IMG/VR virus record: IMGVR_UViG_3300045988_037980
Reading direction: 5' to 3' (one strand)
Length of the DNA stretch: 51,076 nucleotides
Source: a virus
The notes under the pieces were generated by a model, which made no database searches, was not told the DNA's origin, and saw nothing but the letters and a program-made list of their open reading frames with translations. Below are positions 2,619 to 50,884 of the stretch, one piece after another (within the stretch, counting starts at the first letter, position 1; each line of letters begins with the position of its first letter). The position numbers and the translations under genes were made by a program.

Positions 2619-3005
2619 TTAATTAGACAAATCTTCTATCAAGACCGCATCCAAATCTTCCGTAAACTGCAAATACTCCTTGTATTCATCAACTGCACTT
2701 TCGTTCACGGCAACGCCAAGAACGTGCTTGTTGTATGAATTAACAAGGTCAAATTCTGCCGTTTCGTCAATGACCGAACGGATAACGACCCGTTTAACAT
2801 TCTCTTTTGTGGCTTTATTGTAGCCACGCACTTCATAGCACTTCCACCCGATTTGGGTTTCTTCTTCTTGCCCCTCTGGTATGCCCATTTCGGGTTCTAT
2901 ATTCAAGCGGTAAAGCCAAGAACCGTCATTGTCATACTCCAAAACGGCGGGTTTCCCGTGCGCCATATCATAGTGCGCATTAGGTTCTATTAAATCTAAT
3001 TTCAT
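2619..3005 (-). CDS. Hypothetical acidic protein downstream of the DGR RT
   Basis: 128-aa ORF overlapping the RT 3' end by 26 nt. Acidic composition, so not Avd-like (Avd is basic and helical). Confidence 0.55.
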   Translation of the reverse strand: MKLDLIEPNAHYDMAHGKPAVLEYDNDGSWLYRLNIEPEMGIPEGQEEETQIGWKCYEVRGYNKATKENVKRVVIRSVIDETAEFDLVNSYNKHVLGVAVNESAVDEYKEYLQFTEDLDAVLIEDLSN

Positions 3006-4002: not shown

Positions 4003-4081
4003 TGTCCTTTAAGTTTGCTTGTATATTAGGATTCTTCGGGTTGCCCCTACCAAAACCGTTTTACCTAATTTGTTTTTTGCC

Positions 4082-4102
4082 GTTGGGGATTATTGCCCCA
4101 AC
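4082..4102 (-). other. Perfect 7-bp hairpin in the TR-to-RT spacer
   Basis: GTTGGGG (4082..4088) and CCCCAAC (4096..4102) with a 7-nt loop, between TR and the RT start. Confidence 0.5.
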
Positions 4103-4164
4103 TCATGCAACCCCGGTCGGGCTGCTTTTGTGGCAAGGTTTCCGATATGCAACTATATTTTTAC

Positions 4165-4280
4165 AAGCATAGCTGAGAACCGATATTCGCATTCGTATTC
4201 GTAGCCGTATTATTCGTATTCGCATACACGAACCCTGCATTCGCACCATTATTCGCATTACCGCTGAACAAAACGCCACG
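4165..4280 (-). repeat. DGR template repeat (TR)
   Basis: 116 nt aligned to VR1 at an offset of +210. The coding-strand frame reads RGVLFSGNANNGANAGFVYANTNNTATNTNANIGSQLCL*, rich in AAY Asn codons. All differences from the VRs lie at TR adenines on the coding strand. Confidence 0.92.
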
Positions 4281-4349
4281 ACATCGGACAACCTTTGTTT
4301 TATTTTTCATCCAAATTCCAAAATCATATTTGCCACTCGATTTGACGAT

Positions 4350-5816: not shown

Positions 5817-5817
5817 A

Positions 5818-6099
5818 TCAATAGCCCCATTTTAAGTTAGTACCTGACAATGAAGTTTGCTTCACCGTCTTTACGATTTCAGGATTCCAACCGCAATCAA
5901 ATTGCGTTTCGACAAATTCCCCGTCATTCATTCCGGCAAGCTGCACCGATAGTTTCACGGGTTGCGTGCCGTCATTCTTGACGTTGAAGCATTGACCGTC
6001 CGGCAAGCTGAAATCAGCATTAACCAAATTGTCAATCGCTCCCATCTTTCCGATTTGTGCGGACACCGTTTCGCCGCTCCTTGTTTCACTCATAATCAA
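5818..6099 (-). CDS. Small hypothetical tail-associated protein
   Basis: 93-aa ORF between the Tal and DGR target genes, packed 1 nt from the next start. Confidence 0.55.
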   Translation of the reverse strand: MIMSETRSGETVSAQIGKMGAIDNLVNADFSLPDGQCFNVKNDGTQPVKLSVQLAGMNDGEFVETQFDCGWNPEIVKTVKQTSLSGTNLKWGY

Positions 6100-6129
6100 A
6101 AAGTTTTGTTTGCAAATTTAACTTGTTAT

Positions 6130-6146
6130 TGTTTTACTATAAAACA
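6130..6146. repeat. 17-nt palindromic element, copy 1
   Basis: TGTTTTACTATAAAACA, intergenic, 30 nt upstream of the start at 6099. Confidence 0.7.
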
Positions 6147-6170
6147 TTGTGGATAACACAAGTACAACTT

Positions 6171-9100
6171 TTACCCGGTAAAGTCTGTTGTGTTCACAAT
6201 CATAAACGAAAAAGCCGAATCATTGGCACTTGAATCATCACCCGTGTAAACGTCAAAATAACTCGCGTTTTTGGCATAAACCGCCGCATATCTGCCGACC
6301 GAACCTTGGCTTGTCGCATCACAAGTAAGGAATACCAAGTAATTGTTCACGCTTGAAAAGCCCGGATTTATCCGAATCCTGTAATGCCCTGTGCCAATCC
6401 TCGAAGTCGTGACCGTTGCCGTGTCATAGCGGTGCAACTTTATCAATCCGCCCGATTGATTGACCATCCCCATATAAGACACCTTAAATGGCAATCCACG
6501 CATATTGGTTGCCTTTGTGTAAAAACGGCGCAAGATAATCCACCCATAAAATTTGGAATCATCCCCAAGTCCTATCATTTCGACCGCTTCATAAGGCAAA
6601 ATTGTTAATGTGTTGTACGTTCTGCCATTCTCATAAAAATACTTTCCGCTTGGTGCTCTATTGCTTACGATTTGCCCAACGGGTGTTTGCCCATTGAAGT
6701 AATCATTCATAATGATTGCACGGAAACCGCTATATTCCATAGTGAACGGTATTTGGAACGCCGTATTCCAACCGCTGCTTGTTCCCGTAATGACAACATT
6801 ATTGTTGTTTTGCAATCCCAATGTGGACACTATTATGTCGCCGCCCTCTGACCCGCCAAGTCTGAAATAACCGCTCTTGAAAGCATTGGCAATGCTTCCG
6901 TTGATAACCACGTTATCCAAATCGGCGTTGTTTATTGTGCCTTTGTTAATGTATGCTTCACCTTTGACGGTCGCTTTTTCCATCACAACCGACCCATCTT
7001 GCATAACCCGATACGGGGCATAAGACCGATTTTCAAATGATGTTCCAGCCCAAAAGCGCACGGAACTTGCCGCCGTTCCTTGTCCTGTCATACCCGCAAG
7101 AATCGTTGATGTGCTTCCGGCGACTTGAATTGTGCCGGACGTTACCAAACCGCCATCAATGACCGTTTTTGTATTGTCATAAGATACCGCCTTGACCCAA
7201 TCCGTTGCAATGTAAGAACCGCTTGTTCGCTTGACTGCACACCGCTTCAAATCCGTTCCATTGACCCACAAATCACCAATATCATAAGGTGGATAAGGGG
7301 TTGAAACGAACACACGCCGTTTGCCGTCTGCCGTGTCTTGGGCTTTGCTTGCCGTATTGTAGGCATCAATGGCGGTCTTATCGACAATATCCACCCAAGT
7401 ATAAGAACTTGAATATCGCTTCAATTTCTGTGTACTTGAATTGTACCACATATCCCCAACGTGCTTTGCCCTGACTGCCACCGCCCATCCATTTGCCGGG
7501 TCGGTTGTCTGAAACCACGTTTCAATCTTGCCGTCAATCTGTGTGGTCAGGTCTGCAATATCATCCGAATATGTGCCATTGATAAAGTTGTTCAATGCCG
7601 TGTTATCGGTGTATTTGCTTGCCTTTTGCCAATCACTTGACGAATAATTGCCGGACAACCTTGTTCTAATGCAACGCATAATATCCCCGGTTGCACCTTG
7701 AACCCACAAATCGCCGACTTCATAAGGGGTGTAAGGTGTTGCCGTAAATATGCGGTTCTTTTCCTTTGCAAGCGAAAGCGCATCATTTGCAAGTGCAATC
7801 GCCTGTGCCACTTCCGCATCCGACAATTCCGACCACTTGTAAACGCCATTTTCCTTGACAAAACGGAATACCGCCCCCGTTGCGGTATTATAGAACAAGT
7901 CACCCAAATGATTGTCTTTTAATTGGGTTGTAGTCCACTCGCTTGCCGGGGCATTGTTCAATGTCGGGTCGTATGTTTCAAAGAATTGTTCAATCTGTCC
8001 GTCAAGCTGTGCTTGTATTTCGGCAAGCAACCCCGGCAAGGTGTTGTTGATGAAATTCTTGCTTTCAAGGGCTTCATTTCCCAATTCTTCAAGCGTCTTT
8101 TCCTGACCGTTTGAAGTGAACACAATGCGACCGCCGATTTCGGAATTATCCAAGTCAAAATATGTCGTGCCATCCGCCGATTCAATGCGCCCGGTCTTAA
8201 TGAAGCGACCGTTTATCATTGAAAAACCATAAGTCAAGGACAATGAACGAACTTTCAATTCCGGGTCAATGCTCGAAATTGTACCGACAAGAAAATGATA
8301 ATAATTGGCATCTTGTTCAACCTTGATTTGTGAGGTCGAAAATATGAATGTTCCGGCATCACCATTCTTGGCGCATTTTGCATATAGAAAATATGCTTGG
8401 TTGTTTGCTAATGTAACCGTGCCATCCGCCATAACCCAAGACACCGCCGTTTCTTCGTTGATGGTGTAATGGGTCAAGACACCGCCTTGCCATTTCACGA
8501 CATTGGAATTGCCGCCATAATTCGGTTGAAACACCGTGTTCGTCAATCCGAATTGCATTGATTTTGCCCCGACTGACAATGCCAGCGTATCAATAGACAA
8601 AGGCTTTATCTTGTCGCTGTAATAATCGCCGTCAGGGTCAAACACCATGTTCAACAATTCGCGGCTTGTGCGCCAATTCGCCCTTGCCCTTACCGGGTCT
8701 TTAAGGTTGTTGATGGTGATAACCTTGTCAATGTCTATAAGGTCGGAAATGACACGGTTTGTCACCGTTGTTTTCACGGTGTCCGATATTGTAAGGGTGT
8801 ATTCGTAAGGGTCAAGGATATTCCTTTCAAGTGATTGTATGCGCACGGATTTATCCACGTCAATGTCATTATCCACAATATGCAGATAATCGCCCGGTTG
8901 GAATACGTTTGTCACCGTTTCATCACTTCCAACAAGGCTTTGCAACCATGCTTTTGTGACACTCAACCCATATTGCACCTTTGGTTGGCAATTTTGGTCA
9001 TAATACTTGTTGCCCGTTTCTTCCAATTCTTCTTCCGCCGCTTGTTCAATGCTTGACGGATAGGCAATATCAAGTATCTTGTATTCGTCACCCACTCCGA

Positions 9101-34268: not shown

Positions 34269-35021
34269 TCAAAACAATTTTGGCGTAATGCAAGATAAAA
34301 CTTGCTCTTTCGCCGCTTTGTAAAAGTCTTTTTTGATTTCAAATCCATATCCTTTTCTTTGTAAGTTTGCCGCTGCCAATAATGTTGTTCCACTTCCGGC
34401 GCAAGGGTCAATGACCACATCGCCGGGGTCTGTGAATATCCGAATAAGGCGTTCAAGCAAAGGAACGGGCTTTTGTGTCGGATGCACTTTGGGCGTTTCG
34501 CTATCCCTTATCCAATCAAAGCAATTAAAAATCATCCTGCCATCATTGTTGAACTTGGGCAACTTATCCCGGTACAACAATATCCCATATTCACAATTGC
34601 CAACGACTTTCATATTCGCTTTCAATACTTGTGCGGAAAAGTTCTTTCGGAAAACAAGGTTGATGTAATGGTTAAAACCATATCGTTTGCCAAGTTCTAT
34701 GTATTTGAATTGTTGTTCAAACTCGCAAAACACAATCATGCAAGGGGATTTCCCCGGTTGTTTAGGCTCTTTTATAAGCATCTGCGAACAAAAGTGCATA
34801 AATTCAGCCGGGCGAAAATCCTTGTCCGTATCGAAAAACTCCTTACCAGCCTTTTCCGATTCTCCGTTTTTGTTATCCCCATCGACATACCATGCCGGAT
34901 TACTTGCATAAGCATTGACCCCCAAATTATAAGGCGGGTCGGCAATGATTAATTGCGCTTTCGGGATTCCATAAACTTTGAAGTTTTGGAAATGGTCATT
35001 GAATAATTCTATATTCTTCAT
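34269..35021 (-). CDS. DNA methyltransferase (N6-adenine/N4-cytosine, beta class)
   Basis: IIADPPYNLG (DPPY) near the N-terminus and VVIDPCAGSGTT (SAM motif I) near the C-terminus. Confidence 0.85.
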   Translation of the reverse strand: MKNIELFNDHFQNFKVYGIPKAQLIIADPPYNLGVNAYASNPAWYVDGDNKNGESEKAGKEFFDTDKDFRPAEFMHFCSQMLIKEPKQPGKSPCMIVFCEFEQQFKYIELGKRYGFNHYINLVFRKNFSAQVLKANMKVVGNCEYGILLYRDKLPKFNNDGRMIFNCFDWIRDSETPKVHPTQKPVPLLERLIRIFTDPGDVVIDPCAGSGTTLLAAANLQRKGYGFEIKKDFYKAAKEQVLSCITPKLF

Positions 35022-35587
35022 CGTCTGTCGGTTACAATATCAAATACCGCCTTTGTCAAGTTTATGTCATATAAGGCATTGTGCAATGATTCACTTTCGA
35101 CATCAACGCCAAGCGTTTTGGCGACCGTGGATAACTTGAAATTCTCCATGTCCGGGCGGCGGGTCGCAAGGTATGCGGATGCAAGCACCATCACATCAAT
35201 TGTGTTCGACCAAAACCAAGAACCAAAGTATTGGTCGCCGTTCTGCAAGAAGAATCCACGCAAAAATTGATTGTCGAAAGCCGCATTGTTATAACCGACC
35301 AAGAAGAACTTGTCTTTCTTGTTGTACTTATCGACATACTTTTCAAGCATCGCAACAAATTCGGAATATACTTGTCGCATTGGCGGGTATGCCAACACTT
35401 GTTCACGTGTTACCCCTGCAACTTTCAAGGCTTCATCTTCGATTATCGCCCTTGGGTTTGGTTGAACGTGAAAGTCGAATTGTTCTTTGGAAACACCATC
35501 AATCACGATTTCACCCGATATTTGATAGATTCCATTCTTGCCGGGATTTACCCCGGTCGTTTCAAGGTCAAAGAATAGTAACTTCAT
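35018..35587 (-). CDS. DnaQ-like 3'-5' exonuclease (DEDD family)
   Basis: FFDLETTG (ExoI), GYNNAAFD (ExoII) and HNALYD (ExoIII). Confidence 0.85.
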   Translation of the reverse strand: MKLLFFDLETTGVNPGKNGIYQISGEIVIDGVSKEQFDFHVQPNPRAIIEDEALKVAGVTREQVLAYPPMRQVYSEFVAMLEKYVDKYNKKDKFFLVGYNNAAFDNQFLRGFFLQNGDQYFGSWFWSNTIDVMVLASAYLATRRPDMENFKLSTVAKTLGVDVESESLHNALYDINLTKAVFDIVTDRR

Positions 35588-35595
35588 TGTTTTTT

Positions 35596-35612
35596 TGTTT
35601 TATAGTGAAACA
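35596..35612. repeat. 17-nt palindromic element, copy 7
   Basis: TGTTTTATAGTGAAACA, 8 nt upstream of the ATG at 35587. Confidence 0.7.
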
Positions 35613-35619
35613 TTATTTT

Positions 35620-36663
35620 CTAAATCTTCGATAACCATTGTTCCCATATTCTGCTTGCGACTTGCGCCATCATCACGGGTGGCACGGACATTCCGCACAC
35701 ATAATGGGGTGACTGACCGCCGAAATTGTAGTCTTGCGGAAAGGATGAAATGCAACACACTTCACTTTTGGCAAGGAATTTCGGTTGCACAAAATGAATT
35801 AAGCATGATTCCTTGCTTGCAAGGGTCGGGCATATCCTGTCCGGGTACGCATAAGCCTGATTGAAATTTGACCCTTTGCCGAATAACCTTTCATTCGCAT
35901 CACCTTGGTTCGTGTCGCCATCTTTGCGGTTATCCCACAAAAGACGCATCACCTTTGAATTGATTTCACGCCCCGAATAGTCAGCGACTTCACCAAACAT
36001 TATTGGCGGCTCGTTGAAGTCAAGGTCTAATTTGGGTACTTCGTTGAAAAGGTCTTGCCTTATCAAAAATGGGGTGGCAAGGTCTTTCCGTAAACAGACA
36101 AAGAAAACCCGTTCACGCCTTTGCGGAACACCCATCTTTTGAGCGTCAAGCAACCAATGTTGGCAATAGTACCCGGCATCCTCGAATCCATCATATATCC
36201 GCCTTACATAATCCTTGGCTTCACCAAGCAACAATCCCTTGACGTTTTCGGCAACAACGACTTTGGGTTGCAGTTTCTTTGCAAGGTCTATGAAGTCGAA
36301 AAACAAGGTATCTAATACTTGCGCCGCTTGCCCCTCTCGAAAGTGTTTCATCTTTCCCCATGCTTCTTCACGGCTTCCGGCAACCGAAAACGTGGAACAA
36401 GGCGGCGACCCGTCCAGCACGTCAAGGTTGTACAATTCGGGCGGCAAATCCGTTCTATCCTTGAATGTCTGTATCGGTTCAAGGAAAGGGAACTTGGGGT
36501 TGTGGTTCTGACAATATGCGTACATCATGCGGTGGTCTATCTCATTGCACCCGATTACATCGAACCCGGCAAGTTTGTAACCCATAGAACTGCCCCCCCA
36601 CAAGCAAAACATGAAAAGACCGCCCCTTTGTCTTTGGTGAAGTGGGCATCTTTCAAAGTCCAA
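35620..36663 (-). CDS. dcm: DNA (cytosine-5)-methyltransferase
   Basis: GGSSMGYKLAGF (motif I region), GSPPCSTFSVAG (PC motif), AENVKGL (ENV) and QRRERVFFV (motif VIII). Confidence 0.9.
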   Translation of the reverse strand: MDFERCPLHQRQRGGLFMFCLWGGSSMGYKLAGFDVIGCNEIDHRMMYAYCQNHNPKFPFLEPIQTFKDRTDLPPELYNLDVLDGSPPCSTFSVAGSREEAWGKMKHFREGQAAQVLDTLFFDFIDLAKKLQPKVVVAENVKGLLLGEAKDYVRRIYDGFEDAGYYCQHWLLDAQKMGVPQRRERVFFVCLRKDLATPFLIRQDLFNEVPKLDLDFNEPPIMFGEVADYSGREINSKVMRLLWDNRKDGDTNQGDANERLFGKGSNFNQAYAYPDRICPTLASKESCLIHFVQPKFLAKSEVCCISSFPQDYNFGGQSPHYVCGMSVPPVMMAQVASRIWEQWLSKI

Positions 36664-36675
36664 CGATAATCGAAT

Positions 36676-37284
36676 TTATGCGGTTTCATTTGTTTTATTC
36701 AATATATTGTTTACCCTTGTCGCCATATCCCGGAATTGCGGATTGTACTTGAAATCATCATCATACTTCCGCAATAAATGAAGCATCGAAGAATGGTCAC
36801 GGCGAACATACTTGGCTATCTGTGTCAGCTTCATTTTTCGCTTGCGGCAATGATACACGAATATCATCCGGGCAAACACCCCGTCACGCTTGCGCGACTT
36901 GGTGATATATTGATTGAAGCGTAACCCCGTCACTTCATGGATTGCATTTTGTATGCGCAAGATTGCCTTGTATTCATCATTTAGAATGATTATGTTTGAT
37001 TCAAACAATACATCCTTACCCGTGCGGTTGGCAAAATCAAATTCTATTGAAGCCCCGGTTGAAGTAGTCCAATTATCCATCATGTAGATTGCATCACACG
37101 AATGCAGCATTTCAATATCCTTGCATAAATGCTTTATCCATTCTTCATGGGTCGCAAGACCATTCTTTAACGGGTTTATCACTTCAAAGCCAAGTTCCGT
37201 CAATAAGGCTTCCGCATCTTCAAACCTTTGTTCGGCTTCCTTGTAAGGCAAGCCGCTTATCTTTCCTGAAATGTATATCCTCAT
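36676..37284 (-). CDS. Fusion protein: DUF4406 (nucleoside deoxyribosyltransferase-like) N-domain plus DnaA C-terminal-like HTH domain
   Basis: N-terminus MRIYISGKISGLPY...AIYMMDNWTTSTGASIEFDFA. C-terminus ...RKRDGVFARMIFVYHCRKRKMKLTQIAKYVRRDHSSMLHLLRKY resembles DnaA domain IV. Confidence 0.55.
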   Translation of the reverse strand: MRIYISGKISGLPYKEAEQRFEDAEALLTELGFEVINPLKNGLATHEEWIKHLCKDIEMLHSCDAIYMMDNWTTSTGASIEFDFANRTGKDVLFESNIIILNDEYKAILRIQNAIHEVTGLRFNQYITKSRKRDGVFARMIFVYHCRKRKMKLTQIAKYVRRDHSSMLHLLRKYDDDFKYNPQFRDMATRVNNILNKTNETA

Positions 37285-39369: not shown

Positions 39370-40103
39370 TCGTCATTGCATTTTTTTGTTACACTTGCTT
39401 TTCTTGCCGGGCGTATATTGTCACGTTTCGACCATGTGACAACCGCCATCCGCCAATCTTTCATCTTGTTTTTGCCGACCATCCAACCTTTGCTTTCGTA
39501 GAACGCAATGAATGCTTCCGCATCAACTGAATATCCTTTTTCTTGAATGTAGGATTGCACTTCTTCAAAAGTAGGGGGGCGAAACCGCTTGGCGGGTTCG
39601 CTCTTTTCTTTAATACTTTCTTTTATATTATTCTTTTCTTTTATTTCCTTTTCTTTATGTCCTGCATTTGCATTGCTTGCGCATTCGACTTGCATTGCTT
39701 GTGCATTTGATTTAACTTGATTGTTAATTGCTGCTTCTTGTGCATTTGCTTGACTTTCAAGATTTTTTCGCCACCTTTCCAAAGCTGCCAACTTGCGTTT
39801 GTCCGAAATATCCTTTCTCCTGTTCAAACGGTTCAAAACAGATTCAGACCAAAATTTTTCACCATCATTCTTGAACAATCCGTAATTGTAAACAAGCAAA
39901 TCAACCACCTTGCAATCCACGTGTAAAGCAAATGCAATGCTTTTGCATGAACGCAAAGGCAATGTTCCACCTTGCTCGTATAATTGTTCTATGATGCACC
40001 AAAATACGCCGATACCCTCAACGCCAAGGTCAATCAACACGTCTTGCAATTTTGGGTCATTCCGGGCATTGTAATCATGTTGGAAATAATACACTTCTTT
40101 CAT
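39360..40103 (-). CDS. Replication initiation/organiser protein (DUF4373-like N-domain, DnaD-like C-domain)
   Basis: N-terminus YYFQHDYNARNDPKL..L....G.EG.G.FW.IIE.LY. C-terminus FEEVQSYIQEKGYSVDAEAFIAFYESKGWMVGKNKMKDWR. Confidence 0.65.
   Translation of the reverse strand: MKEVYYFQHDYNARNDPKLQDVLIDLGVEGIGVFWCIIEQLYEQGGTLPLRSCKSIAFALHVDCKVVDLLVYNYGLFKNDGEKFWSESVLNRLNRRKDISDKRKLAALERWRKNLESQANAQEAAINNQVKSNAQAMQVECASNANAGHKEKEIKEKNNIKESIKEKSEPAKRFRPPTFEEVQSYIQEKGYSVDAEAFIAFYESKGWMVGKNKMKDWRMAVVTWSKRDNIRPARKASVTKKCNDEWI
39668..39707. repeat. Iteron-like direct repeats inside the replication organiser gene
   Basis: TTGCATTGCTTGCGCATT (39668..39685) and TTGCATTGCTTGTGCATT (39690..39707), 22 nt apart. 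A third partial copy, CTTGTGCATTTGCTTG, lies near 39740. An AT/purine-rich tract is adjacent at 39600..39660. Confidence 0.5.
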
Positions 40104-40876
40104 CGCTTGACGTGTTTTTGTGATTCACCGATACCGAACAACGCAAAGTCATATTTACACGGGTCTTGGGGGTCGAAAGCCGCCAAATTCCGGGTCAGTT
40201 CCTCAACGGTCTTACGGTCGTTGCCTTGGCGTGTAATCAAGCCCAATTCACGCCCCACACGGGCGACATGAACATCAAGGGGCATCATCAATTGACTTGG
40301 CTTCAAGTTATGCCAAACGCCCAAATCAACAATTCCATCTTGACGGCATAACCAACGCAACATAAGATTCAGTCTTTTGCAAGGTGAACCGCCCTTGTGC
40401 CTGTTGGGTGTCGGGTCAGATATATGCTTTGAGTATTCACCGCCATTCGCTTGTGCGAACAATTCACGCAATCTTGAAAAACCATCCCAAACGGTTAAGT
40501 CACCTTGCCCGAAAGCGATTGCCAAAGTGTTGCTTGTCAGATACACAAATTGCAAGCCCCGACACATATACGCCAAATCACGACCAAAAAATGTGCGGTG
40601 AATGTTGCATTTCGGGTCTATGTGTTGCCAACTTCCGTGCATCACAAAATTATAAGGCTTGCCATCCATAATGTCAAACAACATCTTTCGACAACCGTTC
40701 ATTATCTGTTTTCTATTGCCCCAAGCAATTGTCGAAGCAAGGAAAGCGGCAATTTCAATATCTTGTTTGGATTTACCCAAGAAACAACGTGGAAATGCCA
40801 CCGGGTCATTCTCCATGAATGCCGTTGTGTTATACCTTGCCACAAGGGATTCCAATGTTATTTTCAAATCATTCAT
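40100..40876 (-). CDS. TIGR02757/DUF2400-like protein (HhH-GPD glycosylase-like fold family)
   Basis: ENDPVAFPR, IAAFLASTIAWGNRKQI, CKRLNLMLRWLCRQDGIVDLGVW and MPLDVHV, recalled as family hallmarks. Confidence 0.6.
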   Translation of the reverse strand: MNDLKITLESLVARYNTTAFMENDPVAFPRCFLGKSKQDIEIAAFLASTIAWGNRKQIMNGCRKMLFDIMDGKPYNFVMHGSWQHIDPKCNIHRTFFGRDLAYMCRGLQFVYLTSNTLAIAFGQGDLTVWDGFSRLRELFAQANGGEYSKHISDPTPNRHKGGSPCKRLNLMLRWLCRQDGIVDLGVWHNLKPSQLMMPLDVHVARVGRELGLITRQGNDRKTVEELTRNLAAFDPQDPCKYDFALFGIGESQKHVKR

Positions 40877-40926
40877 TGTTGCGATATTGAAGCCCCCGAC
40901 CCGACAAGCAAGCCGGGGGCATTTTG

Positions 40927-41667
40927 TTAAACTTCAATGATTGCGATTTCCGGCGCAATCTCCTTTATTTGCTCCAATTGTTCATCAATAACCTTGTCAC
41001 GCAAATCTTCAAGCGTTACTTGTGCGCCCGGCGACAACAACACAAAGGCGACTTCACGCCCGTTCACCTGTGCGAATGTTTCCACCTCTATTGTTTCGGG
41101 CTGCATACCCTTGAAGATGGGCATTTGGATGGTGAATGATTCCGGCAAGTTGGAATTGACCACTTGGGCGAAATTGTCCGTGCGGTTGCCGTTTTCCTTG
41201 ACCGCCCTTTCAATCTTGTTGTTCACATCGGCGGTGAAGTTCATCAGGCTTGAAACCAGCTTCATGTTTTCGTTGCGGTCGGCAAAGAATGCCCGGTTCA
41301 TCTTGATAAACAAGCCAAGTTCCGTGGGTGTCCAGACTTTGCCGCCGTTAATGCCAAATTCAATGAACTTGGGGTTGTAACTCAATTTGCCCGTTATTTC
41401 ACCACGCCTGTATTCATCCGCTTCATTCGTTATCAAGGTGATTTCGATTGATTCACGGTTTACAAGCACAAGGCAATCTTTTTGTTCAAATTGCCCGGTG
41501 TTAATTCTCTTTTTGAGGTATTCAACGACCGCCCCGATAACACCTTTCAAGTTAGTTTTAACGGGTGCTTTGGGTTCAAGTTCTTTCGCTGCTGCACCCT
41601 CACGAATGACAAGTTCCGCTTTGCTCATTCCGGGCGCAAGGTTGATTTGCAATTTTTCATTATCCAT
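40927..41667 (-). CDS. Hypothetical protein
   Basis: 246-aa ORF in the early operon. Confidence 0.55.
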   Translation of the reverse strand: MDNEKLQINLAPGMSKAELVIREGAAAKELEPKAPVKTNLKGVIGAVVEYLKKRINTGQFEQKDCLVLVNRESIEITLITNEADEYRRGEITGKLSYNPKFIEFGINGGKVWTPTELGLFIKMNRAFFADRNENMKLVSSLMNFTADVNNKIERAVKENGNRTDNFAQVVNSNLPESFTIQMPIFKGMQPETIEVETFAQVNGREVAFVLLSPGAQVTLEDLRDKVIDEQLEQIKEIAPEIAIIEV

Positions 41668-41685
41668 AATTCAAAAATTTAGTTG

Positions 41686-42129
41686 TTAATTGTCCGTTCC
41701 TGTTTTGGGGTTAAGATTGCGCACCACGCCAAAAATGGTGGGTTGCAGTTCGTCAGCGGTCGCCGGGCGGCTCTCAACCAATTTGCCGTCCTTGTTGTAG
41801 TACCCGGTTTCCTTTGTTTCTTGGTCGGTGAACCTGTAACATATTTCGGTTACATATTCCGCCTTTGCCTTGATATTGCGAACCATCTGTTTGCGTTGTT
41901 CCTGCAAGGGCTTCAACTTGCCCTTGAAAGTTTCCATCGCTTCTTTCTTTTTGTTTTCAAGTTCTTCAATCTCAATCGACACGTTGGCAAGGTTTTCTTT
42001 ATGCCCTTGCAATTCTTCCGGGGTGTATGGCTTCATGTAGCCCTTATTTTCGCAAGCATCGCAATTATCTTTCAAGAATGCTTCACGTTGAATCGGGTTC
42101 TTGTATTCCTGCCCAAGTTCTTTTTCCAT
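41686..42129 (-). CDS. Hypothetical protein
   Basis: 147-aa ORF, charged and helical. Confidence 0.55.
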   Translation of the reverse strand: MEKELGQEYKNPIQREAFLKDNCDACENKGYMKPYTPEELQGHKENLANVSIEIEELENKKKEAMETFKGKLKPLQEQRKQMVRNIKAKAEYVTEICYRFTDQETKETGYYNKDGKLVESRPATADELQPTIFGVVRNLNPKTGTDN

Positions 42130-42137
42130 ATCCGATT

Positions 42138-42154
42138 TGTTTTACTATGAAACA
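42138..42154. repeat. 17-nt palindromic element, copy 8
   Basis: TGTTTTACTATGAAACA, 8 nt upstream of the ATG at 42129 and 4 nt after the stop of 42159..42779. Confidence 0.7.
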
Positions 42155-42158
42155 CATT

Positions 42159-42779
42159 CTATTTGAAAAGGAACACTTCGTTGTACAAGTCGGCAAACAT
42201 TTCACCGAATTGCCGTGCCCGATTTGCGGTCTTAAAGCAAAGCCGAGAACCGAAAGCCGCATACGTACCCGTAGCCGCAGAATTCGTAGGCGCATACACG
42301 AACCCCGCAGCATCCCGGTCATATACAAACCAAGGATAATACTTGTATTGGTTTTGGTTGCTGAAATCCGGCACGAAATCATCCGCTTTGTTCCATGCTT
42401 CCGCAATGGTGAACAACTTGTTCAATGCGGCAAGGGCTTTGAGGTGTCGGGGGTTCATTTCATCAACCAAATGGGCAACGCCGTTCAAGTCCAAAGAATT
42501 GTTTGATTGCAGCTTCTTTGTAACGGCAAAGTCCGCATTGGGCTTGCCGCCAAGATACTTCCGGGCTTCCTCGTAGTTGGTCACACATTCGTTGATTTCC
42601 CTTTCCTCGATTTCGTCAAGGGTGAAATCAAACGGGGTCAAATACCCCTCATCGTCTGAATCCAATTCATCGTTGTTGTCCGTAATGTAACCATCCATCA
42701 CATCAACGGCTTCAATCTTTGAATCAAATTTTCCAATGGCTTTTTCAATGCCTTTTTGTCTTAAAAGAAACTTCTTCAT
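42159..42779 (-). CDS. DGR target protein 2: small non-structural protein carrying a remote variable repeat
   Basis: 206 aa with an acidic N-half and no signal peptide. The segment ...AAGFVYAPTNSAATGTYAAFGSRLCF is encoded by VR2. Confidence 0.8.
   Translation of the reverse strand: MKKFLLRQKGIEKAIGKFDSKIEAVDVMDGYITDNNDELDSDDEGYLTPFDFTLDEIEEREINECVTNYEEARKYLGGKPNADFAVTKKLQSNNSLDLNGVAHLVDEMNPRHLKALAALNKLFTIAEAWNKADDFVPDFSNQNQYKYYPWFVYDRDAAGFVYAPTNSAATGTYAAFGSRLCFKTANRARQFGEMFADLYNEVFLFK
42235..42310 (-). repeat. DGR variable repeat 2 (VR2), about 38 kb from the TR
   Basis: Aligns to TR 4165..4240. The 15 substitutions are at TR 4170, 4174, 4184, 4186, 4187, 4193, 4198, 4199, 4208, 4210, 4211, 4219, 4220, 4236 and 4240, all at plus-strand T (coding-strand A). 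Shares the 3' flank CCGCAAATCG with VR1. Confidence 0.85.
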
Positions 42780-42789
42780 GTTCTGAAAA

Positions 42790-43533
42790 TTAAAATGGTG
42801 ATTTGTTGAAATTTGAAATTGTCATTCCGCTTTCGGCAATGTGGGTGGTCTTGCCCGTTGCTTCTTCGATTCCTTGCTTGAACTCCTTTGCGTTTGAATT
42901 GCCATCCGAAAGATGTATCAAGACAATATGGTTCACGCCTGACAAGTCATTTGCAAGCAATGTTTCCCGGCAAGTGTCAAAGCTGCAATGGCTTTTCATT
43001 GTCCTTGCCCGTAACGCCATCGGCAATTTGCCCGCTTCAACATTGGCATCCAATATGTCTTGACGATAATTGCATTCAATCAAGATGTTATTCAATCCCT
43101 GAAAGGTGTAATGCAAGTAATATGTATCAGTTGCGAACAAGACCATGCCGCATTCCTTATGGTAAATCAAAAATCCGAAAGGCTCTTTGGCATCATGTTG
43201 GGTTGCGAATGGTTGCACCTTGAAATTGCCGATTTCGTACACTTTCAATTCTTCCATCACACGGACAAGCCGGGTTTGCGGCAAATGCAATGCGTCTTTC
43301 GTGCCTTGCGACATATAGCATGGGATTTGCGCTTCAAGGCACTTTCCGGCGTGTTTGGCGTGGTCGCCATGCTCGTGTGATATAATTACACCAGCAATGC
43401 GGGAAATGCCGAAATTGACCGCCTTTTGCACGTCTTTGAAAGGAATGCCGCATTCTATCATCAAGCAATCATTGCCGTTGTCAAGCAAGTAGCAATTGCC
43501 CTTTGAACTCGAACCCAAAATCTTCAATTCCAT
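42790..43533 (-). CDS. Metallo-beta-lactamase fold hydrolase (probable nuclease of the recombination module)
   Basis: HEHGDH motif, plus downstream His/Asp residues. Confidence 0.8.
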   Translation of the reverse strand: MELKILGSSSKGNCYLLDNGNDCLMIECGIPFKDVQKAVNFGISRIAGVIISHEHGDHAKHAGKCLEAQIPCYMSQGTKDALHLPQTRLVRVMEELKVYEIGNFKVQPFATQHDAKEPFGFLIYHKECGMVLFATDTYYLHYTFQGLNNILIECNYRQDILDANVEAGKLPMALRARTMKSHCSFDTCRETLLANDLSGVNHIVLIHLSDGNSNAKEFKQGIEEATGKTTHIAESGMTISNFNKSPF

Positions 43534-43557
43534 AGCCTTTCGGATTTTGATTGTTTG

Positions 43558-44508
43558 TTAGAAACCGGGTTGGGGTTGTGGTGTCGGTGATTGCGCCACA
43601 TCCTCTTTTGCGGGCGTGGGCTTTACATCTTCAACATTCTTGATTTCGCCCGTTTCCGGGTCAATCATTGTCGCCGTGGTCTTGTCGTTACCTTGCGCCA
43701 AATCCACACCGATTTGCACTTTGTTGGCGTTATCGTGCTTTTCGGCTTCAACTTCCGCCCCGACTTCTTGATAATCCACATCCATTATGTCTTGGTATTC
43801 CTCAACGGTACGCATCCCCATTGACAATTCAGGTGCGTAAGCACTTGTCCAAAATGAAGCCGCACGATACATAAGCATTTGTTTGGTCATGGTCTGCCAT
43901 TTTGAACCGTTCTTTGTAAACCACCCCTCTTGAATGGCAAGGCGGATAGATACGGGCGAACTTTCCAAGACTTCTTCCGAACCCTTTGCGCTTGTGTAGG
44001 CGACACATTCAATATCCATCATCTTACGCCCGTCAAATTGCTTGGTCGTGGCTTCATTCTTATAATAGCCCCGTCCATTTTGACCGTTTACCCATACTTT
44101 TGTGTACTCGACATAATCCACCATGCCAAGCATACCTTTTTCGGTAAAGCGGTACTTCAAGGGCTTGAAGCGTCCGCAAGTGTTTACGGTGGCGACAAGG
44201 AATTTTGACGACCAAGACGGCTTGCCATAAATCGGCACCATATTTTGCATAACCATCAATGGACTTGCGCCGATACGTTGGGCAATCTCAATGGCAATCA
44301 TGCAATTTGCCATCGCCTTTTCGATTGGGTTTTTGTCCGTTACTTTGTACATATCCGGCACAAGTTCCGAACTTGCGAATAATTTGCAAACACGCTGCAT
44401 GGTGTCGAATTGTACCGGGTCAAAGAAGTTGAACCCGACTTGTACGGGGGCGGCAACCGTCAATACTTGCCCCTGCTTTTCTGTTTTCTGAATTTCGTTC
44501 ATACTCAT
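43558..44508 (-). CDS. recT: RecT-family single-strand annealing recombinase
   Basis: 316 aa with RecT-like core conservation, flanked by nuclease and ATPase genes. Confidence 0.75.
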   Translation of the reverse strand: MSMNEIQKTEKQGQVLTVAAPVQVGFNFFDPVQFDTMQRVCKLFASSELVPDMYKVTDKNPIEKAMANCMIAIEIAQRIGASPLMVMQNMVPIYGKPSWSSKFLVATVNTCGRFKPLKYRFTEKGMLGMVDYVEYTKVWVNGQNGRGYYKNEATTKQFDGRKMMDIECVAYTSAKGSEEVLESSPVSIRLAIQEGWFTKNGSKWQTMTKQMLMYRAASFWTSAYAPELSMGMRTVEEYQDIMDVDYQEVGAEVEAEKHDNANKVQIGVDLAQGNDKTTATMIDPETGEIKNVEDVKPTPAKEDVAQSPTPQPQPGF

Positions 44509-44520
44509 TACTTTTATTTG

Positions 44521-44838
44521 TTAATTGTTATGCTTATTAAATCCCCCCCCCCGTACTTTTTCAATAAGGCTATTTAGGGCGGCTTCTTTCATGCCCGCCA
44601 ATAAAAGCGGCTTTGTGCTTTCCTGTGAAGCAAATCCGGCAATCGCTTCAACCACTTTGCCGCCATTTCCAAGTATGGATATGACTTGCCTTGTGCCATC
44701 CTCACTTTCCACCGATTCAGCGGCAAGGATAACAAGACCACGTTTAACACCCTCTTTCTTTTCTGTCATTACTGACATTTCATGTGCGAATGCTTCCACC
44801 TTTGAAAGAAATTCGCTTTTTTCATTTTTCTTTTCCAT
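44521..44838 (-). CDS. Hypothetical protein ending in a G10-encoded Gly run
   Basis: 105-aa ORF. A homopolymer at 44543..44552 encodes RGGG near the C-terminus. Confidence 0.55.
   Translation of the reverse strand: MEKKNEKSEFLSKVEAFAHEMSVMTEKKEGVKRGLVILAAESVESEDGTRQVISILGNGGKVVEAIAGFASQESTKPLLLAGMKEAALNSLIEKVRGGGFNKHNN
44543..44552. repeat. C10/G10 homopolymer
   Basis: Ten consecutive C on the plus strand, the longest homopolymer noticed in the window. Confidence 0.9.
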
Positions 44839-44849
44839 TGTTGCGTTAT

Positions 44850-46811
44850 TTATTTGATTGTTAAAAAATTGTCCTTGTTTACAACAAGGTTGATAATCTG
44901 ACTTTCAGTTTCGATAATGTCATTGACCGATTCACGGTTGTCAATGAATATCGGTGCGCACACGCCATAAAAGCGGCATAATGTGTTGATTATGTCAAGC
45001 CCGGCATTCATTTGTCCTGCCGTGTTCGCACTTGGGTATGGAACGCCATTGACCAAAGGAATGCACGTTTCAACGGGGTTGTTGTCAATGGTGAAGTCAA
45101 ACAAGCGGAAAGACACATATTTGAACATCCCGTTTATCCGACTTTCGCATTCATCAATCTTGGTTTTTGTGAATTGCTCAACCGTGTATTCCTGTTTTTC
45201 GACATCGGCGATTTGTTGGGCAAGGTCTTTGCCTTTCTTTTCAAGGCTTGCGATTTCATCTTCATAACGCTTGATTGCATCACGGTTGGCAAGCCTTTTA
45301 TTGAGGTCGTCACGGGTCTTGTTCAACTCCGATTTCCTTTCCTGTGCCTTGCTCGTGTCGGCGGAACTTGCCTTTTCGGTGCTTATGGTCGCTTCAATCT
45401 CTTTGATTTTTGCTTGCTTTTCGACCCATTCCGGGATTGATTCAGGCACAACGGCGGCGGCATCAACAAGCGGCAAAGCAACGAAATCGGCTTTCATCTT
45501 GCTTATTTCGCCATTGATAGACGTGACATTGGCATTGGCATTCTCAATGTCCTTTTTCACATCGTCAATGTCCTTTTCAAGTTCCTTGATTCTTTCGCCA
45601 ATTCGCTTGCCCTTTGAGGTTATATCATTGCATTTGTCGGCTTGGGCTTTCGTGAAAACATCCCTTGCTTGCTCAATCATGGCGGCGGGTAATTCCTGCT
45701 TGCAATGCGGACAAGTCGTTTCACCATGATAGACCTTGCCGTTTTCTTCAAACCATTGATTGCGCAAAGTGTCTTGTTCCGACTTCAACTTTTTGACATC
45801 TTCTTCAAGCCGTTCTTGCTCTTTTCGGCTTGCCGACAATTCACGGTTGGTCGCTGCCAATTCACGTTCCTTTGCCTTGATATTGCTTTCCAATTCACGG
45901 CGGGCGGCATTGGCTTCAAATGCAGCATTTTGCGCTTCTTCCTTTGCCCTGAAAAGTAGTTGTTGGCATTCGGATTTCAAGGCGTTCACGTCCTTTTGCT
46001 TCTTTTGCTCCGCTTCATACGCCTTGCGGATTGCGGCGGTGGCATCACTAATCGCCTTGTCTATGTCCTTGATTTCATCATCAATGACTTGGATTTGAAC
46101 TTCAATGGCGTTGAAATCCTCATTTTCGGGCATCATCTTATGGGTTTGGTCAATCCTTGGTTGGATTTGCGCCAATTCATCTTTCAAACGCTTCTTTTTT
46201 GCCGAAATTTCGGCTTTGAAGTCCGAAAGTGATTTGCCGCTTATCTTGTCAAGCAAAAGGGCAAATTCGGGCTTCTTTGAAGCGATTTCGGCATCTGTGA
46301 TTGTTCCGGCAAGCTGAAAAAGTTGTTCCCTTTGCAGCTTCCACGGCATATTGACAAAGAATGCCGGATTGGTTATCATCTTGAACACGGATGAATCAAT
46401 GATTGCTTCAATCCTCTTGGTGTATTCACCGACATTGACCGGGGTATCATTCCACCAACATTCGGTGTGATTGCCCTTGAACACTCTTTCGACTTGCCCA
46501 CGTGGTTTTACCCAATCTTCGATATAGGCACGTTTCAAGTTGATTTCCTCACCGTCCACATCAATGACACCCGACACGCTGCATTCTACATTGTGCAATT
46601 CCTTGCCATCAACACGGGTCTTGATTTCGTAGTCTTTTCGGTCTTTGGAATCTTTGCCGAAAAGCAACCAAATGAAAGCATCGAAATGCCTTGACTTGCC
46701 CAGCCCGTTGCCGCCCGAAATGGTGGTTACGTCCGGGTTGAAATTCGTTGTCCGTTCCTTTTCACCCTTGAAATTGCAAAGGGTTAGGGATTTTAATGTT
46801 ACCTGTTTCAT
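44850..46811 (-). CDS. SMC/SbcC/RecF-like AAA ATPase with long coiled coil
   Basis: N-terminal LTLCNFKGEKE...ISGGNGLGKSRHFDAFIWLLFG (Walker A), a central coiled coil with a CPHC hook-like motif, and a C-terminal Walker B/D-loop region. Confidence 0.8.
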   Translation of the reverse strand: MKQVTLKSLTLCNFKGEKERTTNFNPDVTTISGGNGLGKSRHFDAFIWLLFGKDSKDRKDYEIKTRVDGKELHNVECSVSGVIDVDGEEINLKRAYIEDWVKPRGQVERVFKGNHTECWWNDTPVNVGEYTKRIEAIIDSSVFKMITNPAFFVNMPWKLQREQLFQLAGTITDAEIASKKPEFALLLDKISGKSLSDFKAEISAKKKRLKDELAQIQPRIDQTHKMMPENEDFNAIEVQIQVIDDEIKDIDKAISDATAAIRKAYEAEQKKQKDVNALKSECQQLLFRAKEEAQNAAFEANAARRELESNIKAKERELAATNRELSASRKEQERLEEDVKKLKSEQDTLRNQWFEENGKVYHGETTCPHCKQELPAAMIEQARDVFTKAQADKCNDITSKGKRIGERIKELEKDIDDVKKDIENANANVTSINGEISKMKADFVALPLVDAAAVVPESIPEWVEKQAKIKEIEATISTEKASSADTSKAQERKSELNKTRDDLNKRLANRDAIKRYEDEIASLEKKGKDLAQQIADVEKQEYTVEQFTKTKIDECESRINGMFKYVSFRLFDFTIDNNPVETCIPLVNGVPYPSANTAGQMNAGLDIINTLCRFYGVCAPIFIDNRESVNDIIETESQIINLVVNKDNFLTIK

Positions 46812-49320: not shown

Positions 49321-49607
49321 AAAAAAGCATCAACCCACAAGCAATTGCAATACAACGCCGTTTCTTTGAAGCGTTGGACTTGGCTATCTCCTTGGGTAAG
49401 ATAACCGGGTTGAAAGGCTTTTGTGACGACCACCAATTGAACCGCACAAAGTATTCATGTATAAAAAACAGTCTTGACAAGCCTTTGGATGAAACTAATT
49501 ATAAAATGATTGATTTGGATGCGCTTTCGGCTATTTGCACGGACTTTGGCGTTTCCGCCGAATGGTTGTTGCTCGGACGTGGTAAAATGCTTAAATCGGA
49601 AAAATAA
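49317..49607 (+). CDS. Phage CI-repressor-type HTH protein directly upstream of the integrase
   Basis: C-terminus ...LSAICTDFGVSAEWLLLGRGKM matches the CI_repr HTH ending (vs.eWLL.G.G). Overlaps the int start. Confidence 0.6.
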   Translation: MKKSINPQAIAIQRRFFEALDLAISLGKITGLKGFCDDHQLNRTKYSCIKNSLDKPLDETNYKMIDLDALSAICTDFGVSAEWLLLGRGKMLKSEK

Positions 49608-50884
49608 TGTACATCCAAAAAGGAATAAAGTTTTTGCTTCACAAACGCAAGCCGGGTGAAACGCACAATCTTGCCATTCGTATGCGTGTGACATTACGTG
49701 GGCAAAGACCACTTGATTTTCCGACCGGGCATAACATTGATTTGAAAGATTGGGATGCAAACAATCAATGTGCCTTGAAATCTGCCCCCGGTGCGGCTGA
49801 CATCAACCGCACCATTGATGAATGGAAAGCAATAATGAATGAAGTGTTCGCCCGATATGAATTGCTTGAAAAGCGTGTTCCGACATTGGGCGAAATCAAA
49901 GATTTGTTCAATGATATGGTCGGGCGAAAAACCAAGACCAATGAAAGCCTTGCAGACCCAAACATGGATTTATTTCATGTGTTCGACCTGTTTACCGATA
50001 TGATGGGAAAACAAAATCAATGGACACCATCGACATTTGAAAAGTTTGCGGCAATCAAGCATCATCTTTATGACTTTGACCCGCACTTGTCATTTCCCGG
50101 AATCAATGAATCAAAGATGCAAGCCTATCTTGCATATTTGGAAAAGAAAGAATTACGAAACACCACCATCGCCAAAAATCTTGCTTTTGTCCGTTGGTTC
50201 TTGCGGTGGGCGCACAAAAAAGGGTATTACAATGGGGATGTTCAAGATACATTCAAGCCCAAATTGAAAGGCACGGATGGCAATTCAAAGGAAATAATAT
50301 ATTTGACCCAAGACGAAATAAAAACCTTGGAAAACCATGTGTTCTTGCCCACGCAAGCCGCCCTTGAAAGGGTGCGTGATATTTTCTTGTTTTGTTGCTT
50401 CACGGGTTTGCGATATTCGGATGTGGCGAAATTAAAAAGGTCAGACATCAAGGATGGATTTATTGAGGTTGTCACAAAAAAGACGGTGGACGGATTGCGC
50501 ATTGAACTGAACAAGCATTCACAAGCGATTATTGACAAATACAAGGACATGAAGTTTTCGCAAGATTTGGCGTTGCCTGTAATATCGAATGTGAAGATGA
50601 ATGCCCATTTGAAGATTCTTGGGCAAGTATGCGGCATTGATGAACCGACACGGATTGTCTATTTTCAAGGCGGCATAAGGCACGAACAAGTCTTTCCGAA
50701 ATGGGCTTTATTGACCACGCATTGCGGACGGCGTACATTTGTCGTTACCGCCTTGCAACTTGGCATTCCAAGTGAGGTCATTATGAAATGGACGGGTCAC
50801 AATGATTTTTCGGCAATGAAGCCTTATGTGAAGATAGTTGATGAATTAAAGGCAAAAGCAATGTCAAGGTTTGACAATCTATAA
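49607..50884 (+). CDS. int: Tyrosine recombinase/integrase (Bacteroidota phage-integrase type with N-terminal arm-binding and SAM-like domains)
   Basis: GLRYSDV (Arg I), HCGRRTF (HxxR) and GHNDFSAMKPYV (His ... Tyr). Confidence 0.92.
   Translation: MYIQKGIKFLLHKRKPGETHNLAIRMRVTLRGQRPLDFPTGHNIDLKDWDANNQCALKSAPGAADINRTIDEWKAIMNEVFARYELLEKRVPTLGEIKDLFNDMVGRKTKTNESLADPNMDLFHVFDLFTDMMGKQNQWTPSTFEKFAAIKHHLYDFDPHLSFPGINESKMQAYLAYLEKKELRNTTIAKNLAFVRWFLRWAHKKGYYNGDVQDTFKPKLKGTDGNSKEIIYLTQDEIKTLENHVFLPTQAALERVRDIFLFCCFTGLRYSDVAKLKRSDIKDGFIEVVTKKTVDGLRIELNKHSQAIIDKYKDMKFSQDLALPVISNVKMNAHLKILGQVCGIDEPTRIVYFQGGIRHEQVFPKWALLTTHCGRRTFVVTALQLGIPSEVIMKWTGHNDFSAMKPYVKIVDELKAKAMSRFDNL

Follow-up and report, generated by a model that had tools for sequence, protein, structure and literature searches.

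Which proteins does a phage diversity-generating retroelement (DGR) rewrite, and must they all belong to the virion? The question is raised by a small open reading frame (ORF) in IMG/VR virus record IMGVR_UViG_3300045988_037980, a stretch of 51,076 nt that we analysed in full and call the window. It is the genome of a ~51-kb temperate phage of the Bacteroidales (Prevotella-type) with one DGR and two targets. A first-pass annotation, made from the letters alone, had proposed that the template repeat (TR) of this DGR serves a variable repeat (VR1) in the adjoining gene and also a second, remote repeat (VR2) in a non-structural gene of the recombination module. Our analysis makes it very probable that one DGR diversifies both the tail protein (target 1, T1) and the remote protein (target 2, T2), the latter most likely acting as an intracellular hypervariable binding protein. 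The features on which this turns are as follows.

4165..4280, minus strand: TR, which aligns to VR1 (119 nt) and VR2 (76-77 nt) with A-specific mismatches
4372..4490, minus strand: VR1, at the 3′ end of the tail-protein gene; relative to the TR it has 15 A-site mismatches and one other
42235..42311, minus strand: VR2, the remote variable repeat, defined by its TR alignment and by A sites that vary among relatives
4350..5816, minus strand: T1, tail protein of 488 aa (phrog_5302, tail protein, E 1e-118), adjoining large tail genes
42159..42779, minus strand: T2, soluble two-domain protein of 206 aa (N-domain 1-97; C-domain 98-206, with the variable loop)
2980..4002, minus strand: DGR reverse transcriptase (RT), 340 aa (Pfam RVT_1, E 5.5e-21; PADLOC RT, E 3e-41)

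A remote repeat of the same template

TR positions 4165..4240 align without gaps to 42235..42310, a distance of 38 kb, with 15 mismatches in 76 nt. Every one of the 15 falls on a plus-strand T, that is, on a coding-strand A, and position 4241 adds a 16th of the same kind. Since only 22 of the 76 positions are adenines, the chance that all 15 would fall on them is 6e-11, and chance similarity of VR2 to the TR was rejected. The alignment and its adenine-only substitutions had been reported in the first-pass annotation and were reproduced, as were all of its factual statements. VR2 also has the codon phase relative to the TR that VR1 has, which together with the adenine pattern upholds the claim of a genuine second target of the same TR. 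A blastn search of the whole window with the TR returned the TR itself, VR1 (119 nt, E 7e-36), VR2 (75 nt, E 8e-17) and nothing else; at this sensitive setting a third VR in the window was ruled out. The invariant 15-mer GGGTTCGTGTATGCG occurs exactly three times in the window, against 0.07 occurrences expected.

Of the 76 positions that VR1 and VR2 have in common, 12 are unlike, and the proposal that VR2 is diversified independently of VR1 is supported. The diversified tract of VR2 runs from about 42295 to 42245. It governs 12 A-coded residues of T2 (162, 164-168, 170-173, 175 and 176), which derive from six AAT, four ACG, one TAT and one ATC codon of the TR and give a theoretical diversity of up to 4.7e10 peptides.

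Variability of VR2 among relatives

Nucleotide variation. Twelve IMG/VR contigs hold the RT/TR/VR1 locus as well as that of T2. In every one of them VR2 aligns to the same 3′ part of the contig's own TR, with 9-16 A-site changes; the few non-adenine changes all lie within the end that resembles the initiation of mutagenic homing (IMH) element. Site entropy was calculated for the window and 16 relatives whose T2 proteins are 88-96% identical. Across these 17 genes, 20 of the 23 TR-adenine columns of VR2 are polymorphic (mean entropy 1.16 bit), compared with 5 of the 54 non-adenine columns (0.044 bit) and 96 of the 544 columns of the T2 gene outside VR2 (0.107 bit). VR1 behaves alike in 11 relatives, varying at 26/31 A sites versus 2/88 other sites, and the TR of these 11 is nearly invariant, with a single silent T/C difference.

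Protein variation. A large protein collection yielded 3789 homologues of T2, and a single cluster at 90% identity comprises 3144 distinct sequences. In each of three 90%-identity clusters that cover the VR (3144, 386 and 239 members), every member read has a different VR2 peptide; the 12 A-coded residues have an entropy of ~1.9 bit, compared with 0.05-0.2 bit for the others. The alignment of T2 proteins concentrates its variation in AAGFVxAxTxxTATxAxAxFGSRLCF.

Because this adenine-linked hypervariability extends across relatives, VR2 is a working target in the lineage and not a fossil. A fossil VR was one of the scenarios named beforehand as fatal to the proposal, and hypervariability at the adenine sites excludes it. 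Put more broadly, VR2 might be a fossil or recombination remnant of a tail-fibre VR or of the TR that is no longer diversified. Such an origin would suit a repeat that corresponds to no more than the 3′ two thirds of its TR and in which three TR adenines are fixed as G in all or nearly all copies. It is nevertheless extremely improbable: the A sites are polymorphic among near-identical genes when the non-A sites are not, each cluster member read has its own VR2, the TR boundary is the same in lineages whose T2 proteins are only 55-64% identical, and homology to a published target of the Quimby type, described below, is found on both sides of the VR.

Some adenines do not vary. TR adenines 4174, 4236 and 4265 (plus-strand positions; coding-strand context 5′-CAG-3′) are G in 11/11 VR1 copies. 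Two of these CAG-context adenines fall within VR2, where they are G in 16-17 of 17 copies, and the other adenines vary freely. One of the changes, GCA to GCG (Ala), is synonymous, so protein-level selection is no explanation for it. A change of CTA to CTT (4170) is likewise fixed.

The two ends of VR2

The elements at the two ends of the repeat are listed here.

42219..42256, minus strand: IMH-like 3′ end of VR2 with the flank common to VR1 (VR1 equivalent 4360..4396); both differ from the TR
4165..4186, minus strand: 3′ end of the TR, an IMH*-like version of the VR end
42296..42308, minus strand: invariant 13-nt block GCGGGGTTCGTGT at the 5′ edge of VR2, identical in 16/17 relatives; TR homology ends 3 nt upstream (42311)

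3′ end. The IMH-like flank that had been ascribed to both repeats is present in VR1 and VR2, and the TR differs from it. The common 3′ end and flank consist of CTTTCGGTTCTCGGCTTTGCTT, a short gap and then CCGCAAATCG, where the TR has ATATCGGTTCTCAGCTATGCTTGTAAAAATATAG; the VR-type end itself is CTCGGCTTTGCTTT followed by CCGCAAATCG in VR1 and VR2, and its TR counterpart is CTCAGCTATGCTTGTAAAAATATAG. This distinction between VR and TR 3′ ends fits the expected IMH/IMH* arrangement, the IMH role being putative. In one relative (L016) VR2 retains the CTCAGC of the TR, from which it follows that the transferred tract extends at least that far near the 3′ end.

5′ end. The tract is shortened here, as had been noted: VR2 corresponds to the 3′ two thirds of the TR, or ~65% of the 116-119 nt TR/VR1 tract. 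T2 is homologous to the TR only as far as TR 4241, 3 nt upstream of GC(A/G)GGGTTCGTGT. The same TR boundary is preserved in T2 lineages just 55-64% identical, and the shortened form is conserved in all 12 of the contigs that hold both loci. At the edge codon, 42311..42309, the TR has AAT and VR2 has GCT; since GCT is fixed in 16/17 relatives, this codon is probably outside the rewritten tract. The first variable adenine belongs to the TAT codon immediately downstream of the 13-nt block. According to the BPP-1 model, homing is primed at the IMH and the 5′ cDNA junction is resolved through short homology. By analogy, the GCGGGGTTCGTGT block is our candidate for the homology anchor of that junction.

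The T2 protein

Physical properties and model. The T2 ORF extends 24 codons past VR2. Its product has an isoelectric point (pI) of 4.76 (4.41 for the N-terminal half) and no hydrophobic segment (best 19-residue Kyte-Doolittle mean 0.48), and no export signal was seen in it. AlphaFold2, given a 61-sequence alignment, produced a two-domain model with a predicted local distance difference test score (pLDDT) of 89 and a predicted template modelling score (pTM) of 0.78. In this model the N-terminal unit (1-97) is arranged strand-strand-helix-strand, and the C-domain (98-206) has two helices, a hairpin (150-154 and 159-163), the variable loop and two C-terminal helices. The variable residues lie on the strand and loop 162-176, with lower pLDDT in loop 164-176.

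Family. An exhaustive search of 50%-identity representatives found 1042 clusters of the T2 family, 208 of them at E <= 1e-10. Their conserved core, at ~105-205, is joined to varied N termini and has the consensus ...ALNKLFTIAEAWNKxDGFVPDFSNxxQxKYFPWF...GSRLCFKTxERAxQFGxQFxDLxN. The family is large and phage-only, with a conserved C-terminal domain of ~100 aa that displays the variable loop; a tblastn search of plasmids with T2 gave no match. Both long and short VR forms occur within it, the long form in P0249 and in gp84 of phage BI-TP1.

In six family members (P0266, P0277, P0283, P0290, P0301 and P0182; alignment A3) the loop seems not to come from a TR, GSRLCF is missing and the lengths differ, so that the scaffold may also exist undiversified. 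A distant relative (L146; ena:ERZ1645045:ctg12422, 3800..7400) conserves orf147 at 74%, the neighbouring metallo-beta-lactamase (MBL)-fold hydrolase at 67% and T2 at 36%; with its neighbours better conserved, T2 evolves faster than they do outside the VR too.

Database matches. T2 matches phrog_11581 (unknown function; E 4e-18) and no structural-protein PHROG. Searches of Pfam, NCBIfam and PADLOC with T2 gave nothing above threshold, and a sub-threshold match to His-tRNA synthetase (17 bits, cut-off 25) was disregarded. A profile search of the PDB with the family alignment returned chance-level matches only, and Foldseek against BFVD returned only uncharacterised phage proteins. Similarity between T2 and T1 is confined to 25 VR-coded residues. 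The possibility that T2 is a tail-fibre fragment was rejected, given this limit, the lack of a tail PHROG and the early-region position of the gene. A tail-fibre remnant had been another of the fatal scenarios, and it is excluded by the VR-only similarity to T1 and by the homology to gp84, which flanks the VR.

Relation to published targets

Benler et al. (2021, Microbiome 9:78; PMC8008677) described a second, non-structural DGR target in Quimbyvirus and proposed that it has a role in phage-host conflict. Among GenBank phages T2 matched only an unannotated 9.9-kb contig and gp84 of Bacteroides phage BI-TP1 (27.7% identity). When the T2 family was aligned to gp84 with hhalign (probability 99.2%, E 2.5e-19), the match covered T2 residues 65-206, on both sides of the VR. 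gp84 has a 112-nt VR that departs from the BI-TP1 TR at 14 positions, all of them adenines; this TR is ~56 kb away beside the RT and a tail protein. It follows a TIGR02757/DUF2400 gene, gp83, with methyltransferases and a tRNA ligase around. The gp83-84 region is 97.5% identical to LoVEphage MW660583. LoVEphage (PMC8525569) and Quimbyvirus (PMC8008677) are each reported to be ~95% identical to the Bacteroides dorei prophage CP011531.1, and we equate the two because they were matched to this same prophage. The nuclease beside the homologous Quimbyvirus target was likened to MutY (PMC8008677); it would appear to be of the DUF2400 family.

Being homologous to gp84, which represents a published type of second target, T2 is a new, distant member of a published kind. 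Like the targets of Quimbyvirus, LoVEphage and BI-TP1, it is soluble and small (194-206 aa), and its gene lies at a distance from the RT cassette and not within the structural module; it has the VR near its C terminus, a homologous C-terminal domain and a single TR that also serves a tail protein. All are in Bacteroidales gut prophages with a DUF2400/TIGR02757 gene nearby. The present phage differs in size (~51 kb, compared with ~71-75 kb for the Quimby type) and in having its RT in one ORF, whereas that of the Quimby type is split over three frames. T2 is placed after RecT and the MBL hydrolase, unlike gp84 in its methyltransferase/tRNA-ligase island. In gp84 an insertion of ~25 aa, LVLWGGPANHGAYCG, carries the first third of the VR and is absent from T2; a VR that spans the full TR is a trait of the published type, the VR of gp84 being 112 nt long, but VR2 represents only 76-77 nt of a 116-119 nt TR. 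What sets T2 apart locally from the published case is therefore that its VR is confined to the 3′ two thirds of the TR and that its gene stands in a recombination module.

The novelty that the first-pass annotation had implied was overstated. Wu et al. (2018, PMC5758913, reported 2017) found that phage-associated DGRs often have a non-adjacent target, usually within 50 kb in the same prophage; the homologous Quimbyvirus target followed in 2021 (PMC8008677); and PMC12629997 (Nature 2025;647:698) reported that four prophage species of Bacteroidota have a second VR, distal and close to genes of counter-defence type, DNA methyltransferases among them, which its authors read as part of a phage-host arms race. 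The latter prophages resemble ours, by description, in that the second VR is distal to the RT cassette. Service of several VRs in trans by one TR is also known from the cellular DGRs of Treponema and Legionella and from the prophage DGRs of PMC5758913; the cellular targets are mostly surface or secreted proteins, in contrast to T2 with its lack of an export signal.

The wider resemblance is to the DGR of Bordetella phage BPP-1, whose target is the tail fibre Mtd: an RT, a TR and a VR, adenine-specific mutagenesis and an IMH-type distinction between VR and TR 3′ ends. In BPP-1 the target is single, adjacent and structural, an Avd can be recognised and a hairpin follows the IMH; the last three of these were not found for VR2. 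Both T1 and T2 have NNxxN...IGSR, which we take to be an Mtd-like VR pattern.

Genomic setting of T2

Nearly all genes of the window are on the minus strand. The structural and packaging module extends from the T1 region up to the small terminase gene TerS (30942..31448), and DNA-metabolism genes occupy ~32 kb to 47 kb. The latter encode a Holliday-junction resolvase, a pyrophosphatase, two DNA methyltransferases, an exonuclease, a nucleoside 2-deoxyribosyltransferase, an anti-repressor, a DnaC-like loader, a replication initiator, DUF2400/TIGR02757, DUF2303-like and orf147 proteins, T2, the MBL-fold hydrolase, RecT and an SMC-like ATPase. The features nearest to T2, and the integrase, are listed here.

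42790..43533, minus strand: MBL-fold hydrolase (Pfam Lactamase_B; phrog_392, E 7e-79)
43558..44508, minus strand: RecT-like annealing protein (phrog_561, E 3e-54)
41686..42129, minus strand: orf147, the downstream neighbour of T2 (phrog_12688, unknown function), syntenic in most loci
40927..41667, minus strand: DUF2303-like gene (phrog_11501; Pfam DUF2303 at E 1e-4, under the cut-off)
40100..40876, minus strand: DUF2400/TIGR02757 gene (Pfam, E 2e-68; TIGR02757, E 7e-55)
49607..50884: integrase gene, which marks the phage as temperate

A gap of 10 nt separates the MBL stop from the start of T2, and one of 29 nt separates the end of T2 from orf147. T2 lies >10 kb from any structural or packaging gene, in close array with recombination and replication genes of the same orientation, and 5.5-8 kb from the DNA methyltransferases. 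The array is conserved in ~45/60 loci in the order ATPase, orf105, RecT, MBL hydrolase, T2, orf147, DUF2303, (DUF2400) and replication genes; the MBL gene adjoins T2 in ~45/60 related loci. A minority of T2-family contexts have instead a PAPS reductase, DNA methyltransferases or small unknown proteins, and never tail genes. Related prophages were found in genomes of Prevotella, Bacteroides pyogenes, Parabacteroides and Muribaculaceae.

The description of T2 as a small soluble protein in a recombination/replication module (206 aa, pI 4.76, no hydrophobic segment, RecT and MBL neighbours) has therefore stood. Its extension to a cytoplasmic, early-expressed and non-virion protein goes further than these observations, its sole grounds being the place of the gene and the absence of hydrophobic segments. 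T2 could instead be a virion component encoded outside the structural module, such as an accessory adhesin or a tail-tip decoration, with VR2 serving host recognition. T2 and the tail protein have a TR in common and hence a chemically similar binding loop, and there are published phage DGRs with two targets in which both are taken to be receptor-binding proteins (PMC10743442). We consider this unlikely in view of the distance to the nearest structural or packaging gene and the RecT/MBL/replication array around T2, of homologues in other lineages that stand by methyltransferases, PAPS reductase and DUF2400 but never by tail genes, and of the lack both of a domain common to T2 and T1 outside the VR and of a structural PHROG for T2.

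The tight MBL-T2 adjacency, with its 10-nt gap and wide conservation, raises another alternative: a prophage superinfection-exclusion or defence sensor for competitor-phage proteins, signalling to a neighbouring effector such as the MBL-fold hydrolase. The phage is temperate, as its integrase indicates, and DGR-diversified intracellular sensors have been proposed for cellular DGRs (10.1101/2023.09.22.558884). This role for T2 is improbable, however, when several contexts of T2 homologues have no MBL gene, neither T2 nor the MBL gene has a PADLOC match, and T2 shares its strand and array with lytic-cycle replication genes. An MBL gene beside RecT is, moreover, an ordinary phage recombination pairing.

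Two further observations concern this early region. Two methyltransferases, a nucleoside 2-deoxyribosyltransferase-like gene and the DUF2400/TIGR02757 gene (34269..37284 and 40100..40876, minus strand) are putative DNA-modification genes. The SMC-like ABC ATPase that heads the array (653 aa, 44850..46811, minus strand) resembles the defence ATPases LmuB and AriA (PADLOC, E 7e-20 and 1e-16), which may be generic ATPase similarity.

Proposed mechanism and role

In the mechanism that we propose, the RT and an accessory factor would copy TR RNA and misincorporate at adenines, as in the DGR literature. The mutagenised TR cDNA would replace VR1 in T1 and also VR2 in T2, 38 kb away, with VR2 recognised through the same VR-specific IMH-like 3′ end as VR1 and homing acting in trans. 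Because T2 shares homology with no more than the 3′ two thirds of the TR, the cDNA junction on the upstream side would be set by homology at the invariant GCGGGGTTCGTGT, and only 12 codons would be rewritten. T2 would be made together with the recombination and replication genes and would most likely work within the cell, infected or lysogenic, where a conserved scaffold would carry its variable binding module; its target would be a variable component of the host or of a competitor. We infer the homing steps by analogy, and the intracellular location and ligand class of T2 from gene context. Within this reading a host-directed or counter-defence ligand is favoured, tentatively and at somewhat less than even chances, because of the consistent link of the family to anti-restriction-type DNA-modification genes and the absence of export signals.

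The candidate for the accessory factor is the following ORF, which overlaps the 3′ end and stop of the RT gene by 26 nt.

2619..3005, minus strand: candidate accessory ORF of 128 aa; its only match is phrog_11557 (unknown function)

Several results weigh against the mechanism and role proposed here. Gene position alone is compatible with packaging of T2 into virions. As T2 has neither a PADLOC match nor an annotated homologue, the case for counter-defence draws on its gene neighbours and on speculation in the literature. When the 3′ flanks of VR1, VR2 and the TR were folded as DNA, no structure exceeded the shuffled controls and there was no hairpin, so we claim no hairpin like that of BPP-1. 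For an Avd or HRDC-type accessory protein, neither ORF 2619..3005 nor ORF 5818..6099 had a match in Pfam, NCBIfam or the PDB. Modelling had been suggested as a check for a minimal C-type-lectin-like (CLec-like) fold; Foldseek against the PDB with the full T2 model or with the C-domain alone (pLDDT 87-89) found nothing at E < 0.9, and the best C-domain matches, to the C-type-lectin-like domains of CD94 and Ly49A (E 3 and 9.9), are a mere hint. The CLec assignment is not adopted, since no Foldseek match was significant. Finally, the differences among contigs stem from different samples and record lineage turnover, not the rate within one population.

A bolder form of the proposal is that the T2 family provides a miniature scaffold, specific to phages and not of lectin type, for an intracellular 'antibody-like' protein whose DGR-rewritten loop tracks variable host defence components, possibly phase-variable restriction specificity subunits or immune sensors. 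We think it doubtful, at perhaps one chance in a few. Were it true, the DGRs of gut phages would drive counter-defence as well as adsorption, and, to judge by the truncated VR, 13 nt of homology would suffice for the 5′ junction of mutagenic homing in trans.

The function of non-structural DGR targets in gut phages is a question that the literature has raised, and T2 adds to it a second, very abundant lineage. The family offers thousands of natural variants and ~50 near-complete genomes in IMG/VR. T2 is compact (206 aa) and confidently modelled, and its naturally short tract limits the homology needed for homing in trans. It is thus a convenient and abundant model for the role of such targets, and what is known of how DGRs work is unchanged by it.

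The DGR cassette and other observations

The RT translation contains IGNYLSQ and YADD; I/LGxxxSQ is the motif-4 signature of DGR RTs. The RT gene starts 163 nt downstream of the TR, and on the coding strand the order upstream of the RT is the TR, then VR1.

Rfam and tRNA scans of the window gave nothing, and a near-identity search of GenBank phages with 40000..46000 found no match. The 719-aa head-morphogenesis/minor-head protein (25642..27801, minus strand) has an additional match to a PHROG annotated as Bxa, an ADP-ribosyl transferase (E 6e-80).

One relative (L187; IMGVR_UViG_3300000304_000103, 6150..6750) has three TR-like tandem copies at 210-nt spacing, the first being VR1 and the last the TR. 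The middle copy has the 5′ flank of the TR, together with mutated adenines and the IMH-like end and 3′ flank of the VR type; it is either a product of unequal VR1/TR recombination or an assembly artefact of the hypervariable region.

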